A stretch of DNA of 64,000 nt. Origin: Evtepia sp. (GTDB taxonomy: Bacteria > Bacillota > Clostridia > Oscillospirales > Oscillospiraceae). Positions 48,202 to 55,271 of this stretch are shown in pieces. The stretch is from assembly GCA_040768225.1 (NCBI GenBank), contig JAXGMZ010000001.1:346591-410590 (forward strand), given 5' to 3'. The translations under genes were made by a program, and so were the position numbers. The notes beneath the pieces were generated by a model. The model did no database searches. It saw nothing but the letters and a program-made list of their open reading frames with translations, and was not told the DNA's origin. Numbering within the stretch: the stretch's first letter is position 1; each line of letters opens with the position of its first letter.

Positions 48202-48837
48202 GTGACGGCGCTGTATTTTGCGTATGGTTTGGACGCCATTGAATACCTGAAAAAGAAAGATAAGCGGCTGGGAGATGCCATTGAACGAATTGGCCCGATC
48301 CAACGTAAGACGGAGAGTGATCTGTTTACCGCTGTTGTCCATCATATTGTCGGCCAGCAGATCTCCACTGCCGCACAGGCAACGGTTTGGGCTCGGCTGC
48401 AGGGGTTATTGGGGAAGGTTTGTGCGGATACGGTTTGCCTTTTCTCGCGGGAAGAGCTGCAAAGCTGTGGCATTACGTTTAAAAAAGCGGACTATATCCT
48501 GGCTTTTGCGCAGAAGGTGCAGTCTGGCGAATTTAATGTGGAGGCTCTCCGGGACATGGCGGATAAAGATGTCATCGCCACTCTCTCCTCCCTTAATGGT
48601 GTAGGGGTGTGGACCGCTGAAATGCTGATGATTTTTTGTATGCAGCGTCCAGATGTTGTGAGCTATGGGGATCTTGCGATCCGCCGCGGAATACGAATGC
48701 TTTACCGCCACCGCAAGCTGGATAAAAAAATATTCGCCAAATACGCGCGAAGGTACTCCCCCTATGGGTCAGTGGCCAGCCTGTACCTTTGGGCAATTGC
48801 CGGCGGCGCTATTCCGGAGTTGGATGATCCGGGATGA
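48202..48837 (+). CDS. DNA-3-methyladenine glycosylase II (AlkA-like)
   Basis: IVGQQISTAA, LNGVGVWTAEM, DLAIRRG, YSPYGSVASLYLW. Confidence 0.9.
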   Translation: MTALYFAYGLDAIEYLKKKDKRLGDAIERIGPIQRKTESDLFTAVVHHIVGQQISTAAQATVWARLQGLLGKVCADTVCLFSREELQSCGITFKKADYILAFAQKVQSGEFNVEALRDMADKDVIATLSSLNGVGVWTAEMLMIFCMQRPDVVSYGDLAIRRGIRMLYRHRKLDKKIFAKYARRYSPYGSVASLYLWAIAGGAIPELDDPG

Positions 48838-49044
48838 GTGCTTGAACTCAGCCTGTGTGTACGGGGCTACAGGATCGTATTCATACAGCCTTGATACGGT
48901 ATGCGTTTAAGAGTGTCTTTTTGACAAAGTCGGCCGCTTCATAGTTTGGCTCTGGCACAAAAAAGAGTGGCGCGCTGTAAAAGCCGCTTTGCCATGAGAG
49001 CATCCGCAAACAGGGCGACCCCACATCGCTTCTGTTACGATATA

Positions 49045-49112
49045 ATTACGGCATCCACACCGTAGACCCGCTTGCTTTGCGTCGCCGGCTTTCGCCGGTT
49101 TTGCCTTTCGCT
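49045..49112 (-). ncRNA. c-di-GMP-I (GEMM) riboswitch aptamer, 3' end degenerate
   Basis: Minus strand AAAGGCAAAACCGGCGAAAGCCGGCGACGCAAAGCAAGCGGGTCTA matches GGCAAA-P2(GAAA)-GACGCAAAGC; expected closing ..GCC(N)nTTGCC not found. Confidence 0.65.
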
Positions 49113-49343
49113 TTATTCTATTGCATATCACTGTTGATCTTTTATTTAACGAGCATTGCAAACGCAGGGATCAAGACAAGCGCTAAATAGACTCCGTACT
49201 TATAACTACATTATTTCGCCCCTTGTTTTTTGCCTGATACAATGCTTGATCAGCCATATGAGTAAAAACGCGATCAAGGCAATTGTAACGATTAGCTGCA
49301 GTAAAGAAGGGATTGTAAACCACTTTCGCATATAAGATCCCCC

Positions 49344-51485
49344 CTAGCCCGTAATCGTTTCAACATGGTATGGGACATCTATTATATTAAAAAACAGTTG
49401 TGCAATGTCCGGATCAAATTGTGTGCCCATATTACGCTCGATCTCTTTGATTGCCATATCTTTCGGCAAAGCCTTACGGTATATTCGATCCTCTGTCATC
49501 GCATCGTACGCATCGGCAATCGCAAGAATCCGTGAAATAACAGGAATCTCCCGCTCCTTTAGCCCGATGGGATAGCCCGTCCCATCCCATCGCTCATGGT
49601 GATATAAAATATAGTCGGCGATATGCTCCAGCTGCGGGGTTGACATGGCGATGCGATGCCCGATTTCGGGGTGCTGCCTCATGATAACCCACTCGCTTTC
49701 GGTCAGCTTGCCCGTCTTATTTAGGATACGATCATCAATGCCGATCTTCCCGATATCATGGAGCTTGGATAACAGCTGCAGTTCATCCAGCTCTTTTTGT
49801 GATAGCCCTAGCTGTTCTCCGATTGCATGACAAAGCAGCCCCAGCCTTTGGCCATGCTGTTCTGTTTCCTGACTTTTCGCATACAGCGTTGCCATGATGG
49901 AAGAGACGATGGCCGAGTGGGAGCTGTTTTGGTTGAGGAGTTTGCGGCGGCTCAGATATTCCTCCGCAGCTCTCGTTACATCCTGCATCGTCTGGTGTTC
50001 CGTTTCCTTTGTGGCGTGCCCTATGGAGATGCTACTTGCATAAAGTGCCTTTTCACTTGCTCTGTTATAGCTTTCGACCGCATGTTTGATCTCCTCTTTT
50101 AACTGATGGGCAGCCTGGCTGTCTGTGTGCGGCAGCAGAAGGATATATTCGCCGCCGCCAGCGTGTCCAAGTACAGATTCATTGCGTAAGCACCCTTGGA
50201 TCAGATGCGCTGTTTTTATAATGAGACGGTCCCCCTCTTCATGTCCATAGGCATCGTTAATCATGCGCAGCCCGTCAATATCACAAATGGCGATGGACAG
50301 GGGCCAAAACTCCGGCTGATCCAGATACTTTTTCTGTTGCTCTATATAGTTGCGATTGTAAAGGCCGGTGAGAAAATCATGCTCCCGCAGATGCGCGATC
50401 TGAGCATCCTTATTCTTTTGGTCGGAAATGTCCAACACAACTCCCTCAAGGGCTTCCAGCTTACCGTCATCGTCATAAACGCCCTGGCCTAATTCCAAAA
50501 CCCACTTCCGTTCTCCGGACTTTGTGAGGATCTCGTATTCATCGCGGTACCGCTTGCGCTGTATCAATACTCGTTTCCATTCAGCCCGGACAAGATCGCG
50601 GTATTCGGGAGAAATGAGCCCGTTAAAAGAGAGCATTTTGTCCGTGGTAAAGCTTTCCGCCTTATACCCCGTCAGGTCATAGCAGCCCTCCGAAACAAAT
50701 TCCATTGTCCAGTTTTCGTTATCTTGGCATCGGTAGGCCATGCCGGGGATATGGGAGAAAAACACAGCTTTGCTGCGCTCGCTTTCCTGACGGGACGCTT
50801 CCGCTTCTTTAAATCTTGCGTTTTTTCTCAGGAGGTTAAAGAGCGTAAAAACAAGTGCGGCGAGGCATGCGACAACCATAATGTCGGGAATCATCTTTTT
50901 CCATAGCTTTGCCTGCCACTCGAGCGCAGAATAGCTCAGTCCGAGGACGGCGATGACGCTTTTTCCGTTTGCATCATAGATTGGCACCAGCGCCCTGATC
51001 CAATTTCCGCAGGGGAGGGAAATGGGATCGGTAATATAACTTTGCCCCGTTCCAAAAGATATTTGGTTTATGTCCGCGGTTTCCTCACAACTGCGTCTTG
51101 TCGGGTGGGAAGTGTCGGAATTGGCGGCAGATGAATCTGCGATAACGGAAATGCTCCCACTCTGCTGCTTTAAAATATAGGCATAATAAATCGAATCCGT
51201 GACCTCGACCAGATGTGTCAAGGACTCTTCGACAAGACAGCCATCGGGAGCGGTTGCCTGATTGCTCGATGCCAGCTCCGCTATATGCTCTACATGCAGC
51301 AGCGAGCCTACTGACTGTGCGAGGTTTGTCGCCTCCAGTTTCGCCATCTGCTGGTATCTGCTCCAGGCAAAATATAAGTATAGGCTCGCCAATATAACCA
51401 CGATTAAAACCGTGGAGACCATAGGTAACAATATACGGGGATGCAGGCCCTCTGCTAAAACCCTCTTGACTTGTTTATCTCTCAT
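49344..51485 (-). CDS. Membrane PAS + degenerate GGDEF + HD-GYP c-di-GMP phosphodiesterase
   Basis: PAS (HIPGMAYRC..WTMEFVSEG); GGGEY in place of GGDEF; LHDIGK...HHERWDGTGYP...DAYDAMT. Confidence 0.9.
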   Translation of the reverse strand: MRDKQVKRVLAEGLHPRILLPMVSTVLIVVILASLYLYFAWSRYQQMAKLEATNLAQSVGSLLHVEHIAELASSNQATAPDGCLVEESLTHLVEVTDSIYYAYILKQQSGSISVIADSSAANSDTSHPTRRSCEETADINQISFGTGQSYITDPISLPCGNWIRALVPIYDANGKSVIAVLGLSYSALEWQAKLWKKMIPDIMVVACLAALVFTLFNLLRKNARFKEAEASRQESERSKAVFFSHIPGMAYRCQDNENWTMEFVSEGCYDLTGYKAESFTTDKMLSFNGLISPEYRDLVRAEWKRVLIQRKRYRDEYEILTKSGERKWVLELGQGVYDDDGKLEALEGVVLDISDQKNKDAQIAHLREHDFLTGLYNRNYIEQQKKYLDQPEFWPLSIAICDIDGLRMINDAYGHEEGDRLIIKTAHLIQGCLRNESVLGHAGGGEYILLLPHTDSQAAHQLKEEIKHAVESYNRASEKALYASSISIGHATKETEHQTMQDVTRAAEEYLSRRKLLNQNSSHSAIVSSIMATLYAKSQETEQHGQRLGLLCHAIGEQLGLSQKELDELQLLSKLHDIGKIGIDDRILNKTGKLTESEWVIMRQHPEIGHRIAMSTPQLEHIADYILYHHERWDGTGYPIGLKEREIPVISRILAIADAYDAMTEDRIYRKALPKDMAIKEIERNMGTQFDPDIAQLFFNIIDVPYHVETITG

Positions 51486-51754: not shown

Positions 51755-52279
51755 CTAATTCTCCGCCAGTTTTGATAGCGCGGAAAATTCGCTTTCGCCA
51801 AGGATTTTCCCAGCGTGGAGCAGTAAGGCTACACGCTCCTTCTGGCCTTCATCTGCTTGTAAGGTAGCGATCCCCGTCAAGTAATCGCTGACATGTGAAG
51901 GCACGTTGCCTATTTTTGGCGGTTCGGAAATCTGCTGTGCCTCGATATCGGTGACTTCGTCGACCTGATCGACAATAAGGCCAAAATCATTCCCCTGCAC
52001 ATGGGCGATTATGATGCAGGTCCGCTCAGTGAACTGCGCTTCATCCTTCCCGAAGCGCAATCGAATATCAATGACAGGTATGATTTGACTGCGCAAATTG
52101 ATCATGCCTTTGACATAAGGCACTTGTTCCGGCAAGGGTATCACCTCCTGCATCTGCGCAATCTGAACAATCTCTGTGATCGGCAGACCGAATAGCTGTC
52201 CATCCGTAAAGAAGGTCAGGTATCGGTTACTGGACTCTTCAGTTAATTGAGAGGTCAGTACTTGTTCTTGCAGTTCCAT
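51755..52279 (-). CDS. cheW: Chemotaxis coupling protein CheW
   Basis: YLTF, YVKGMINLRSQIIPVIDIRLRF, GLIVDQV. Confidence 0.92.
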   Translation of the reverse strand: MELQEQVLTSQLTEESSNRYLTFFTDGQLFGLPITEIVQIAQMQEVIPLPEQVPYVKGMINLRSQIIPVIDIRLRFGKDEAQFTERTCIIIAHVQGNDFGLIVDQVDEVTDIEAQQISEPPKIGNVPSHVSDYLTGIATLQADEGQKERVALLLHAGKILGESEFSALSKLAEN

Positions 52280-52297: not shown

Positions 52298-54079
52298 TTA
52301 ATACTTTCCCAGGCCGAACGCCGCTTCGGGCAGTCGATCTTCAAACCGCGGCTTGCTTTGGGAGGCAATGGACAAAATATGCTCTTGCGCTGCTCCGTCA
52401 GCCAGCTTGAATTTTCTAATCTCTCCGCGCAGCGCCGCGGCCTGTGCGGACATTTCCTCACTGGTGGCGGAGTTTTCCTCCGCCGTGGCGGCATTTGTTT
52501 GCACCACAGAGGAAATCTGGGAGAGCCCATCCTTAATCTGCTCGATTGCAGCGGTCTGCTCGGCAATCGATTTTTCAATTTTTTCAAAGTTATCCGTTAC
52601 TTCACCCGTGCTTGTGCCCACATCCCGAAGAATTTGAGCCGTTTGGCTGGTAATCTCCGCACCCTTTTCCACCGCAATCACAGAGGACTGAATCAGGGTT
52701 CCCGTCTGCTGGGCAGCTTCGGCCGATTTTGCGGCAAGATTACGGACTTCATCCGCCACAACTGCAAAGCCCTTTCCCGCATTGCCTGCCCGCGCCGCTT
52801 CAATCGCAGCATTGAGCGCGAGGATGTTCGTTTGGAACGCGATGTCTTCTATCACCTTTGTAATGCTGGCAATCTGGCTAGAGCTGGAGCTGATATCCGC
52901 CATTGCCTGGGATAGCTGCCCCATGTGCTCATTGCCTGTGTTGACTCCCATACCTGCCTGATCAACAAAACTGCTTGCTGATATAATTGCCACCAAATTT
53001 TCTTCCGCTTGCTTTGCAATGGTCTCCACGGAGGCCTCCAGTTCCTCCACGGAGGCTGCCTGTTCCGTTGAGCCCGCTGCCAGCGCCTGTGCACCGCTGG
53101 ATACCTGATCGGAGCCCGCAGCTACCTGCTCGGCCGCCGTATCGATGTTGAGCATTGTATGATTCAGGGCAGAAACGGTATCTTCTATTTCCCGCTTCAG
53201 AACCGCGAAGTCTCCGGGGTAGTCCAAATCTACCCGAAGCCGCAAATCTCCATGGGATATTTTTTCAAACTTATCGATGACATCCTCGACGATTGCGCCT
53301 TGCATCGCATTGGTTTGTTGAATCAGTTTGGTCATCTGCCCGAGCTCGTCACGGCTTTCATAGCGGATTACGGTCTTCATATTGCCTTTGGCTATTTCAC
53401 CGTAGGCATCTACAATTTCATTGACAGGCGTGAGGATAGACTTTCTGATGATGATTGTTAAAAACACGGAAAGCGCTGCGGCCACAGCTCCGCACACAAT
53501 CATCGCAAGTAGAGCGAATTTAACCGTAGCCACTGCGTCCTGCTCCTGATGAACAGCACGCTCATCTGCAGTTGTGGTGAATTTAACCATAATTTCAGCC
53601 GCCTGATCCATGATCGGTACATAGTCGTATTCGTACCTTTCTCTTGCTTGTTGCATGTTAGCTTCCGTTGGCGTCGCCGCGAGTTCGGCAATTTCTAGCC
53701 GTATTTTCCCCGCCTTACCGAACAGCTCCCGCAGTTTTGCAATATCCGCATCACGGCTTGTATCCCTTTGGTTTCCCTCGTACCGATCAAATTCACTCAG
53801 TAATGTCGTCGAATCTTGTTGGGCCGAATCGAACCATTTTGAAACTTTCACTGCGTCAGCCTCAAGCAGTCCATTAGCCATATCCCTCTGTATAGAAACT
53901 GTGTTACGACGAATCACCCAGATACTTGTGCTGTTTGGCAGTGTGTATTTCGCGTAGGAATGAATCTGCTCATTGATGCCGTTGATGCTTAAGATTGCGA
54001 CTGCGATGGTGATCAGGAGCATGACTAAAATGGCGCCGAATCCAATGATAAGCTTTTTGCTGATCGATAGGTTTTTCAT
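52298..54079 (-). CDS. Methyl-accepting chemotaxis protein (four-helix sensor + HAMP)
   Basis: Two TMs; DELG HAMP; [37 protein letters not shown]; RBS ggaggg before ATG 54079. Confidence 0.95.
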
Positions 54080-54141
54080 ACTGTTTCCCTCCAAAATGTT
54101 TTAGAGCCGCTGTTAGCGGGGTAAGTTGCTTTTGTGCAAAA

Positions 54142-54161
54142 CACATAATTCTCATTATGTT
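54142..54161. repeat. Left inverted repeat of invertible cassette (dif-like)
   Basis: cacataattctcattatgtt; exact reverse complement of 54401-54420. Confidence 0.9.
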
Positions 54162-54233
54162 GTAATAACGAAAAAGAAATTGTAAGATATATACTGTTAT
54201 TAAATAATCAGGAGTAAAAATAGAAAAGCAAAT

Positions 54234-54265
54234 AGGCCGATTAGATAAAATACTTCTATCGGTCT
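54234..54265. terminator. Bidirectional terminator inside the cassette
   Basis: aggccgattaga...tctatcggtct with U-rich tails on both strands. Confidence 0.7.
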
Positions 54266-54334
54266 TGTTTTCGTGTATAAAATTTAATTCTATTTGATAA
54301 AAATATCAGCTTGTGAATTGCGTCAACGAATCGC

Positions 54335-54363
54335 TTGTTATTTCCACCATGAAGTAGTATAAT
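54335..54363 (+). promoter_or_regulatory. sigmaA promoter inside the cassette, currently pointing away from the MCP gene
   Basis: TTGTTA-17-TATAAT, 37 bp from the right repeat. Confidence 0.75.
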
Positions 54364-54400
54364 ATTATGTAAATTTATGTTGAATTATTAATATAAATGT

Positions 54401-54420
54401 AACATAATGAGAATTATGTG
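54401..54420. repeat. Right inverted repeat (overlaps the recombinase stop codon)
   Basis: aacataatgagaattatgtg. Confidence 0.9.
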
Positions 54421-55271
54421 ACCGCTAATCTCATTTGCTCAATTTGATGGGCATGGATCGCGCCACTCTCAATCGTATAAATTCGCGTTGTATTCACATT
54501 GGAATGACCGAGTATATCCGCCAGGCGAAACAAATCCTTTTCCAGCGCATAATAAGTTCGCGCAAATAAATGGCGTAGGTTGTGAGGAAACACCTTTTCG
54601 GGTGCTACTCCCGCACGTTTACACAGGCTCTTCATGTCCCGCCAGATATTAGAACGATTGAGGGGTTTGCCCGCTTTTGTGATGAATATATGCCCGGAAG
54701 CCAATTGCTGCTTCCGGGCATATTGCATCAGTGCCCGGCACAGCCTTTTGGGAAGAAAGATGGTGCGCATCTTGCCCTTGCAGTTGACAACCGCGCGCCC
54801 TGCTCTTGCTGCTTCTATTGTGATGAATTGCAGTTCGGAAACACGAATCCCTGTGGCGCAGATGGTTTGGAGAACGAATGATAGTCGTTCATTTCCCTCC
54901 TGCTCGGCTGCTCGAACCAGACGCAGGTATTCCTCACGGGTAAGCTCCTTTTCTTCCCCGCAAAACAGACTTCTTTGTATCTTAAGCGGTTTAAGCTTGA
55001 AATCGAACCAGCCGGCAAAGCTTAAAAAAGCATTGACTCCCGCAAGCATGGTATTGACGCTGGATGGTGCGTATTGCTGTGTCAGTGCCTCCTTCCACCG
55101 GATTAAACTAGTTTTAGAGACTGGTTCATGATCAAGAAATCTGCGCAGTGCGGCAAGGCTGCGTTCATAGGCCTCAATGGTTGAGTTACCCTTTTCTTGC
55201 TCTTGAAGATAGGAAATAAAAGCTTTTGTCCTTTTAGGGGTAATCGTTCGGATTTCTTCATTTTGCGACAT
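54414..55271 (-). CDS. XerD-like tyrosine recombinase (285 aa), candidate invertase
   Basis: TGIRVSEL (R), KGK (K), HNLRHLFA (HxxR), LGHSNVNTTRIY (H, Y); no arm-binding N-terminal extension. Confidence 0.93.
   Translation of the reverse strand: MSQNEEIRTITPKRTKAFISYLQEQEKGNSTIEAYERSLAALRRFLDHEPVSKTSLIRWKEALTQQYAPSSVNTMLAGVNAFLSFAGWFDFKLKPLKIQRSLFCGEEKELTREEYLRLVRAAEQEGNERLSFVLQTICATGIRVSELQFITIEAARAGRAVVNCKGKMRTIFLPKRLCRALMQYARKQQLASGHIFITKAGKPLNRSNIWRDMKSLCKRAGVAPEKVFPHNLRHLFARTYYALEKDLFRLADILGHSNVNTTRIYTIESGAIHAHQIEQMRLAVT

Follow-up and report, generated by a model that had tools for sequence, protein, structure and literature searches.

We analysed a 64,000-nucleotide window of the genome of Evtepia sp. 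(assembly GCA_040768225.1, contig JAXGMZ010000001.1, positions 346,591 to 410,590) and describe here a recombinase gene, a pair of inverted repeats at its 3' end and the AT-rich segment between the repeats. Positions without a further prefix are those of the window. The gene, at 54414-55271 on the minus strand, encodes a 285 amino acid (aa) tyrosine recombinase of the Xer superfamily, presumed to be an invertase on the basis of the open reading frame (ORF), its profile and structure matches and its catalytic residues. It is followed by a proximal core site (54397-54424), a predicted invertible segment of approximately 25-30% G+C (54166-54396) and a distal core site (54138-54165). Beyond the distal site is an operon on the minus strand, referred to below as the cargo. 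In brief, its first gene encodes a methyl-accepting chemotaxis protein (MCP, 52298-54079), with an ATG at 54079 behind GGAGGG, although the ORF list extends the start to a TTG at 54094. The two following genes have profile matches to CheW (51755-52279) and to a PAS-GGDEF-HD-GYP (HD_5) protein of cyclic di-GMP (c-di-GMP) signalling (49344-51485). We suggest, with a probability of approximately 0.8, that the repeats serve as core sites for recombination in a promoter inverton, which is worked by the adjacent recombinase.

The repeat is perfect over 20 nt and reads CACATAATTCTCATTATGTT at 54142-54161, with the reverse complement at 54401-54420 and 239 nt between the copies. Each copy has the form ACATAA-TTCTCA-TTATGT, that is, inverted arms flanking the asymmetric 6-bp spacer TTCTCA. 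Both copies extend to 28-bp sites with arms and spacer of 11, 6 and 11 bp (11-6-11). The distal site, on the MCP side, is AAAACACATAA-TTCTCA-TTATGTTGTAA on the plus strand, with the outer arm at 54138-54148, the spacer at 54149-54154 and the inner arm at 54155-54165. The proximal site, on the recombinase side, is CGGTCACATAA-TTCTCA-TTATGTTACAT on the minus strand, and its outer arm (54414-54424) contains the last three sense codons of the recombinase gene and the stop codon TAA (54414-54416). A preliminary description of this DNA, made from the letters alone, had described the same arms and asymmetric spacer, with outer limits identical to ours (54138-54424), and had placed the gene end GTC ACA TAA inside the outer arm; both points agree with what we found. 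The inner half of this arm is thus the last sense codon ACA plus the stop TAA, so that gene and site are physically inseparable and the gene would be left untouched by an inversion. Allowing up to two mismatches, the 18-nt core occurs at only two places in the 2.25-Mb genome, both of them in this switch. The two inverted copies are located at C1:400.7-401.0 kb, far from both extremes of the GC skew (minimum at approximately C1:1.02 Mb, maximum at approximately C3:0.21 Mb).

The recombinase contains a Phage_integrase domain (PF00589), which scores 91.8 bits where the cut-off is 27.1, and a SAM-like domain at its N terminus (PF02899, SAM_1, 31.5 bits against 22.3). The catalytic set is complete, with R143 (GIRVSE), K165/K167 (KGK), H230 and R233 (HNLRH), H256 (LGHS) and Y265 (RIYT), and these residues align with the same motifs of the housekeeping Xer of the host. 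Among the NCBIfam Xer profiles XerA is the best match with 130.5 bits (cut-off 220), while XerD reaches 113.5 bits (cut-off 329.6) and XerC 105.5 bits (cut-off 335). Models of the FimB/FimE type give 29.8 and 26.9 bits, with cut-offs of 221 and 222, respectively, that are not reached either. The best match to a solved structure is XerA 4a8e (E = 2.8e-21), and the next best are XerA 5hxy and XerD 1a0p. Since all Xer scores are below the curated cut-offs, we assign the enzyme by sequence to the Xer superfamily, but not as an orthologue of XerC, XerD or XerA.

Homologues of the recombinase were searched in six frames and are present in 65 of 201 genomes of the same GTDB family, often in several copies and often at contig ends. 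A scan of species genomes gave 80 further loci with 56-76% identity, from Oscillospiraceae, Lachnospiraceae (Muricomes, Eisenbergiella, Blautia, Enterocloster, Hungatella), Anaerotruncus and others, and an exhaustive search gave 739 recombinase clusters (50% identity) at E<=1e-30. The rules given below are drawn from 30 loci of the same GTDB family and 80 loci of named Clostridia. Loci with enough downstream DNA nearly always carry a palindromic site, with a spacer of 6 bp, at or just past the recombinase stop codon, and an inverted partner site follows 116-508 bp further on, mostly at approximately 200-300 bp. One such predicted switch (L043) is in Anaerotruncus colihominis DSM 17241, at approximately 3,279,180-3,279,440 of NZ_CP102255.1. 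The preliminary description had proposed looking for such pairs at the 3' ends of homologous clostridial recombinases of 280-290 aa, and had held that homologous genes lacking them would speak against its reading. The pairs are there in nearly all of these loci in gut Clostridia, about 100 in total.

The consensus of 131 distinct sites is TTACAACATAA-TTTNNN-TTATGTTGTAA, in which the positions ACA-A(A) and TT-TGT-GT are near-invariant. Stop codon and spacer adjoin without a gap in 53 of 77 loci. Of 107 distinct genes, 74 have ACA as their last sense codon, compared to 20% ACA among the threonine codons elsewhere in those genes, and the stop codons are TAA (76), TAG (26) and TGA (3). In distant branches, which have GGACAAAA arms, the stop codon TAG falls in the outer part of the 11-nt arm. 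Judged from these codon counts, the layout with the stop codon in the arm is a conserved constraint at the DNA level, where the site dictates the end of the gene.

We also considered that the repeats might be operators of an unrelated repressor and not recombination sites. The repeats are palindromic and adjoin a predicted promoter, which fits such a role, but the site accompanies the recombinase gene and overlaps its stop codon throughout the family, the copies are always inverted within the distances given above, and the inner segments are inverted between orthologues, as described below. We regard this explanation as hardly credible.

The arms are alike and the spacers differ between switches of the same genome. 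A genome of the same genus has four paralogous switches with common arms, GACCACATAA, and the spacers CAACGG, TGACGG, CGGCGG and TTCCGA, and paralogues inside other assemblies behave likewise. This would fit spacers that give each switch a private address and keep the switches from recombining with one another. The window switch also contains two extra TTATGT half-arms on the plus strand, at 54365-54370 and 54375-54380, 10 bp apart and located between the -10 box of the predicted promoter and the proximal core site. They had been pointed out earlier and are confirmed by direct inspection of the sequence. The inner segment would be expected to contain 0.41 such hexamers, and the two half-arms are possible accessory binding sites. 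Over 68 family loci we counted 31 extra arm hexamers inside the segments where 16 are expected, and 24 of these 31 are within 50 nt of a core site. As the enrichment is only about twofold and the half-arms are not always on the same side of the segment, we rejected them as a strong universal feature of the family. Separately, seven loci (L052, L063, L072, L077, L076, L079 and L089) have a third core site, also complete, which is located 20-45 nt inside the first or next to it, or else have the first site duplicated in tandem; these could permit alternative inversions or act as accessory sites.

Evidence for inversion comes from two orthologous pairs of loci, L040/L041 and L042/L098, the members of each pair being from different assemblies. 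Their recombinases are 67-70% identical to the window recombinase. In both pairs the flanks align in the same orientation (0.90-0.92), whereas the inner segments match solely as the reverse complement of each other (0.85-0.90 versus 0.14). A near-consensus sigma-A promoter, TTGnnA-17-TATAAT with 10-11 of 12 matches, is found in homologous switches, approximately 40-70 nt away from one of the two segment ends, and faces outward, and in both orthologous pairs it turns over together with the segment. Over the assemblies of homologous switches, the promoter is directed toward the recombinase in 37 and toward the cargo in 14. It should be noted as a separate observation that the core site at the recombinase stop codon is where many assemblies end, either inside the site or right behind it, e.g. 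at L008, L010, L022, L032, L084 and L102; such breaks are expected where mixed orientations of a switch disrupt assembly, and are consistent with mixed orientations in the sequenced populations.

In the window, the best match to a promoter of the sigma-A type in the region is TTGTTA-17-TATAAT at 54335-54363 on the plus strand, with 10 of 12 consensus matches. It faces the 3' end of the recombinase gene, and the assembly therefore displays the OFF state for the MCP-CheW-PAS/GGDEF/HD-GYP operon. The middle of the segment (54225-54275) is predicted to fold into a hairpin, at approximately 54234-54265, with T-rich tracts on both strands. The folding energy is -15.1 kcal/mol (z -4.2) for the plus strand and -9.5 kcal/mol (z -2.2) for the minus strand, and a comparable central hairpin is found in paralogous switches of G040, a genome of the same genus. 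The hairpin is a candidate two-way terminator, which may block read-through from the recombinase gene into the cargo in either state.

The switch would work as follows. Four copies of the recombinase, as a homotetramer, would bring the inverted sites together and cleave at the borders between arms and spacer with a 6-bp stagger, and the AT-rich segment of approximately 250 bp would flip between the sites. The segment would carry with it one outward promoter, the two half-arms just downstream of this promoter and the central hairpin. In the assembled orientation the promoter would fire into the 3' end of the recombinase gene, leaving the cargo OFF and giving a transcript antisense to the recombinase. 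In the inverted orientation it would drive the MCP-CheW-PAS/GGDEF/HD-GYP operon, with transcription starting near 54190 on the minus strand, approximately 110 nt upstream of the MCP start. The predicted junctions of the ON state, with the slash marking the point of joining, are ...GCAAAACACATAATTCTCATTATGTT/ACATTTATATTAAT... and ...CGTTATTAC/AACATAATGAGAATTATGTGACCGC....

The same layout could connect the switch to the expression of its own recombinase. Transcripts from the invertible promoter in the OFF state would start approximately 45 nt beyond the stop codon and read antisense through the recombinase gene, and the 3' end of the recombinase mRNA would depend on the orientation of the switch in both states. 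The preliminary description had mentioned binding of the enzyme to its sites as a possible autoregulation; the position of the OFF-state promoter suggests antisense transcription as a more concrete candidate for regulation of the recombinase than binding. Feedback of this antisense or orientation-dependent kind could account for the excess of the OFF orientation among the assemblies (37 versus 14).

The sites are similar to dif, the site of chromosomal Xer recombination. A dif-type site has 28 bp, with two 11-bp arms of partial dyad symmetry and a 6-bp central region (PMC5357621), and both the window sites and the family consensus have this 11-6-11 geometry. The inner arms, ACATAA and TTATGT, are identical to the inner arms of dif. 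The E. coli dif sequence quoted in the preliminary description is correct and agrees with the table in PMC2731167. The proximal site matches it at 17 of 22 arm positions, among them the whole of CATAAT...ATTATGTT, the distal site at 14 and the family consensus at 13. The genome contains approximately 4.5 million 28-mers, and no more than two of these, one being the proximal site, agree with E. coli dif at 17 of 22 arm positions. Of the two, the proximal site alone keeps the inner palindrome CATAA...TTATG. The best-conserved positions of dif are the inner arm positions (PMC2731167), and the positions invariant in the family (ACA-AA/TT-TGT) coincide with these.

It is nevertheless conceivable that the switch is real and its likeness to dif without historical meaning. 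AT-rich palindromic arms with a spacer of 6-8 bp would then be generic for simple tyrosine recombinases, and the ACATAA variant at the window locus a matter of chance. The decisive arm position does vary in the family, with ACATAA, ACAAAA, ACAGAA, ACGGAA and GACATTA all found, the consensus shares a mere 13 arm positions with E. coli dif, and the enzyme, besides scoring well under every Xer cut-off, is no closer to the host Xer (36.9 bits) than to archaeal XerA (79.9 bits). On the other hand, the sites show the exact 11-6-11 geometry, the invariant positions of the family fall on the conserved inner positions of dif (PMC2731167), the proximal site is one of the two best 28-mers in 4.5 million, and the enzyme has its best matches, to profiles as well as to structures, all among Xer proteins. 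We consider a likeness without history to be unlikely, though it deserves to be taken seriously. In our reading of their sequences and architecture, sites and enzyme belong to the Xer/dif world. Of the derivation from a Xer/dif system proposed in the preliminary description, the Xer-like enzyme, the geometry and the inner arms stand, whereas the scores under the cut-offs and the variable T of the arm leave direct descent from a dif site plausible but unproven, at roughly even odds.

Several observations weigh against the switch as we have drawn it. The promoter and terminator at this locus are consensus or folding predictions only, and a simple terminator scan of the switch found none. Every Xer-family score of the enzyme is far under its curated cut-off. 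The dif-like T at arm position 9 (ACATAA) varies between T, A and G across the family, and distant members have GGACAAAA or GGACATTA arms. The sole other public contig that encodes the identical protein has an identical sequence and is also OFF, a metagenome scan with the 20-nt repeat gave two unrelated contigs with chance matches, and the ON orientation of the window locus was seen neither in the genome assembly nor in the one other contig. For the window locus itself, flipping is thus presumed. The same two contigs would be expected if the switch were a frozen relic, with intact-looking sites and gene, that has ceased to flip in this organism and is fixed in the OFF state. We find this improbable, as there is still no difference between the two 20-nt repeats, and the ORF is intact, as are its catalytic residues; the assemblies of homologues are also mostly OFF, yet orthologues differ in orientation.

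The genome encodes one housekeeping Xer (C3:215033-216049), with 240 bits to XerC and 214 bits to XerD, located at the GC-skew maximum. Fuzzy searches of the genome with the dif sites of E. coli and B. subtilis and with XerD-arm patterns gave nothing convincing as a classical dif. Immediately upstream of the housekeeping xer, and outside the window, we found a perfect 12-6-12 palindrome, AACTTCGCAAAA-TGCTAA-TTTTGCGAAGTT, at C3:214974-215003 (L132:1442-1471). An equivalent site, AAnTnAACAAAA-TAAAAA-TTTTGTTnAnTT, is present upstream of the orthologous xer in approximately 22 of 30 relatives. By its position and shape the palindrome looks like a gene-linked, non-classical dif of the XerS/difSL kind, and we treat it as a candidate. 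The invertase has 28% identity to the host Xer over the catalytic domain and scores 36.9 bits in phmmer. The latter is below the scores for archaeal XerA and E. coli XerD, and we therefore rejected for now that the invertase is a recent descendant of the host Xer. The genome also encodes two more Xer-like paralogues of approximately 300 aa, at C2:223792-224718 and C1:212618-213592; both end in ...LMNL, and one has 180 bits to XerC.

The preliminary description had suggested that host XerC/D may assist or compete at the switch. Some features are in line with a host Xer acting as partner on one arm or as competitor for the sites, namely the dif-like inner arms and the motif AACA-AA...TT-TGTT, which the candidate dif of the family has in common with the switch consensus. 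We found no support for such a role, however, and think it quite improbable. The two arms of each switch site are near-identical, as would suit a single recombinase. The candidate dif of the host differs in its arms (CTTCGCAAAA) and spacer, and the host Xer is only distantly related to the invertase. Every switch travels with its own recombinase, with which the arms co-vary, and RecV, a related invertase of the Xer family, inverts its switch unaided in E. coli (PMC2784873).

Among known systems, XerS/difSL, XerH/difH and archaeal XerA/dif likewise consist of one Xer-type recombinase that acts on a site with two similar arms. In these single-recombinase systems the site is directly beside the gene and forms a module with it (PMC5357621), as at the window switch, and XerA is the best profile and structure match of the window recombinase. 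In contrast, they serve to resolve dimers of the chromosome and use a single site close to the terminus, while the switch has two inverted copies that flank a promoter. The switch further differs from XerS, XerH and XerA in that its recombinase gene has the site at the 3' end, with the stop codon inside it, and in that its enzyme is under every family cut-off.

The switch fimS of E. coli is, like the window switch, an invertible promoter with tyrosine recombinase genes alongside. Expression of fimE depends on the orientation of fimS (orientational control), and its transcript runs into the switch. This resembles the orientation-dependent 3' end of the recombinase mRNA and the antisense promoter that we propose here. 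Unlike the window recombinase, FimB and FimE are one-domain enzymes of approximately 200 aa. Models of their type give it only 27-30 bits, and the repeats of fimS are 9 bp with flanking half-sites and no overlap between gene and site.

The switches of RecV in C. difficile include cwpV, flgB and cmrRST. This XerC/XerD-family tyrosine recombinase inverts short segments bearing promoters or terminators (PMC2784873). The pdcB switch of the same species is an invertible promoter of 174 bp, has 19-bp repeats and governs a c-di-GMP enzyme (PMC9286219). The c-di-GMP phosphodiesterase switches of C. difficile, pdcB and pdcC, parallel the signalling cargo of the family switches. Compared by description only, RecV is one master enzyme whose gene is remote from most of the switches on which it acts, whereas each family switch has an adjacent recombinase, and the portions of the RecV and pdcB reports that we consulted describe neither overlap with a stop codon nor a dif-type site. 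XerC of Ureaplasma parvum (UU222) and Xer1 of Mycoplasma are Xer-annotated recombinases responsible for phase-variable inversion at short inverted repeats (PMC3599477). These inversions occur in another taxon and swap gene parts or promoters of surface-antigen genes, and the recombinase is not fused to the site.

A further counterpart is in a survey of invertons in the hCom2 gut community. Its inverton group 139, tightly linked to invertase group 35, comprises 33 invertons in 17 strains, 32 of the invertons in Clostridia and nearly all with an adjacent tyrosine recombinase (PMC11892184). In the examples shown there the repeats measure 13-25 bp and the inner segments 206-228 bp, dimensions that fit the window family, and flipping was measured from reads, e.g. 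in Intestinimonas butyriciproducens and Clostridium sp. D5 (PMC11892184). By size, taxon and adjacency of the recombinase, group 139 is probably the window family. The accessible text of the survey makes no mention of likeness to dif, overlap with a stop codon or c-di-GMP cargo (PMC11892184). Our literature search on dif-like invertible switches, or on invertons of Lachnospiraceae or Oscillospiraceae with c-di-GMP or chemotaxis cargo, gave no direct description.

The window locus is thus an ordinary member of a large and little-described family of switches and not a new mechanism, and a promoter inverton with a cis-encoded Xer-superfamily invertase is an already known kind of system. Descriptions at the level of the family of a stop codon embedded in a dif-shaped 28-bp site, of addressing by spacers and of signalling cargo were not found in the searchable literature. 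In 67 of 83 loci the distal site is followed by a co-directional cargo gene, and most of the cargo is signalling proteins. Scanning 43 cargo proteins gave GGDEF (14), EAL (7), response regulators (5), MCP (4-5), CheW (2) and HD-GYP (1). This list suggests that phase-variable c-di-GMP and chemotaxis signalling, so far mainly studied in C. difficile, may be common in commensals.

The signature of the switch, TTACAACATAA-N6-TTATGTTGTAA over an ACA-TAA/TAG gene end with an inverted copy approximately 250 bp further on, is recognisable. In gut Clostridia, whose invertons are under-described, it allows sequence alone to be used for annotating such switches and the private recombinase of each. The overlap of gene and site is a clean case of a codon pair fixed by a requirement of DNA binding. 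It also offers handles for locking the phase, as mutations in the spacer or arms can be silent in the protein or avoid it. More tentatively, we speculate that the recombinase gene and its stop-containing site are a self-contained phase-variation cassette that descended from a gene-linked Xer/dif module. The cassette would have been duplicated hundreds of times in gut Clostridia, with private spacers, an OFF bias by antisense transcription and a preference for c-di-GMP and chemotaxis cargo. All of this together is doubtful; if it is true, second-messenger set-points would be phase-variable in commensals.

Some further loci stand apart. In G024, a genome of the same family, we found 12 copies (L116-L127) of a more distant recombinase with 40-44% identity, many of them near-identical. 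The complete copies have a pair of GGACATTA-TTGATA-TAATGTCC sites approximately 270-310 bp apart, beginning approximately 100 nt past the end of the homology, and several copies have one spacer in common. The set looks more like a multi-copy, possibly mobile, element than like private switches. Two close homologues with 60% identity, L092 and L093, are on contigs binned as metagenome-assembled genomes (MAGs) of Oxalobacter sp. and Bacteroides thetaiotaomicron, and this placement is either a binning error or a transfer outside Clostridia.

An Rfam scan found no known RNA elements in the switch or the leader. The sole Rfam match in the neighbourhood is a c-di-GMP-I riboswitch at 49003-49115 on the minus strand (45.2 bits, cut-off 35), directly downstream of the GGDEF/HD-GYP gene. 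After it there is no ORF of at least 100 aa on its strand, and the next gene, encoding an HhH-GPD protein (48202-48837), is on the opposite strand.

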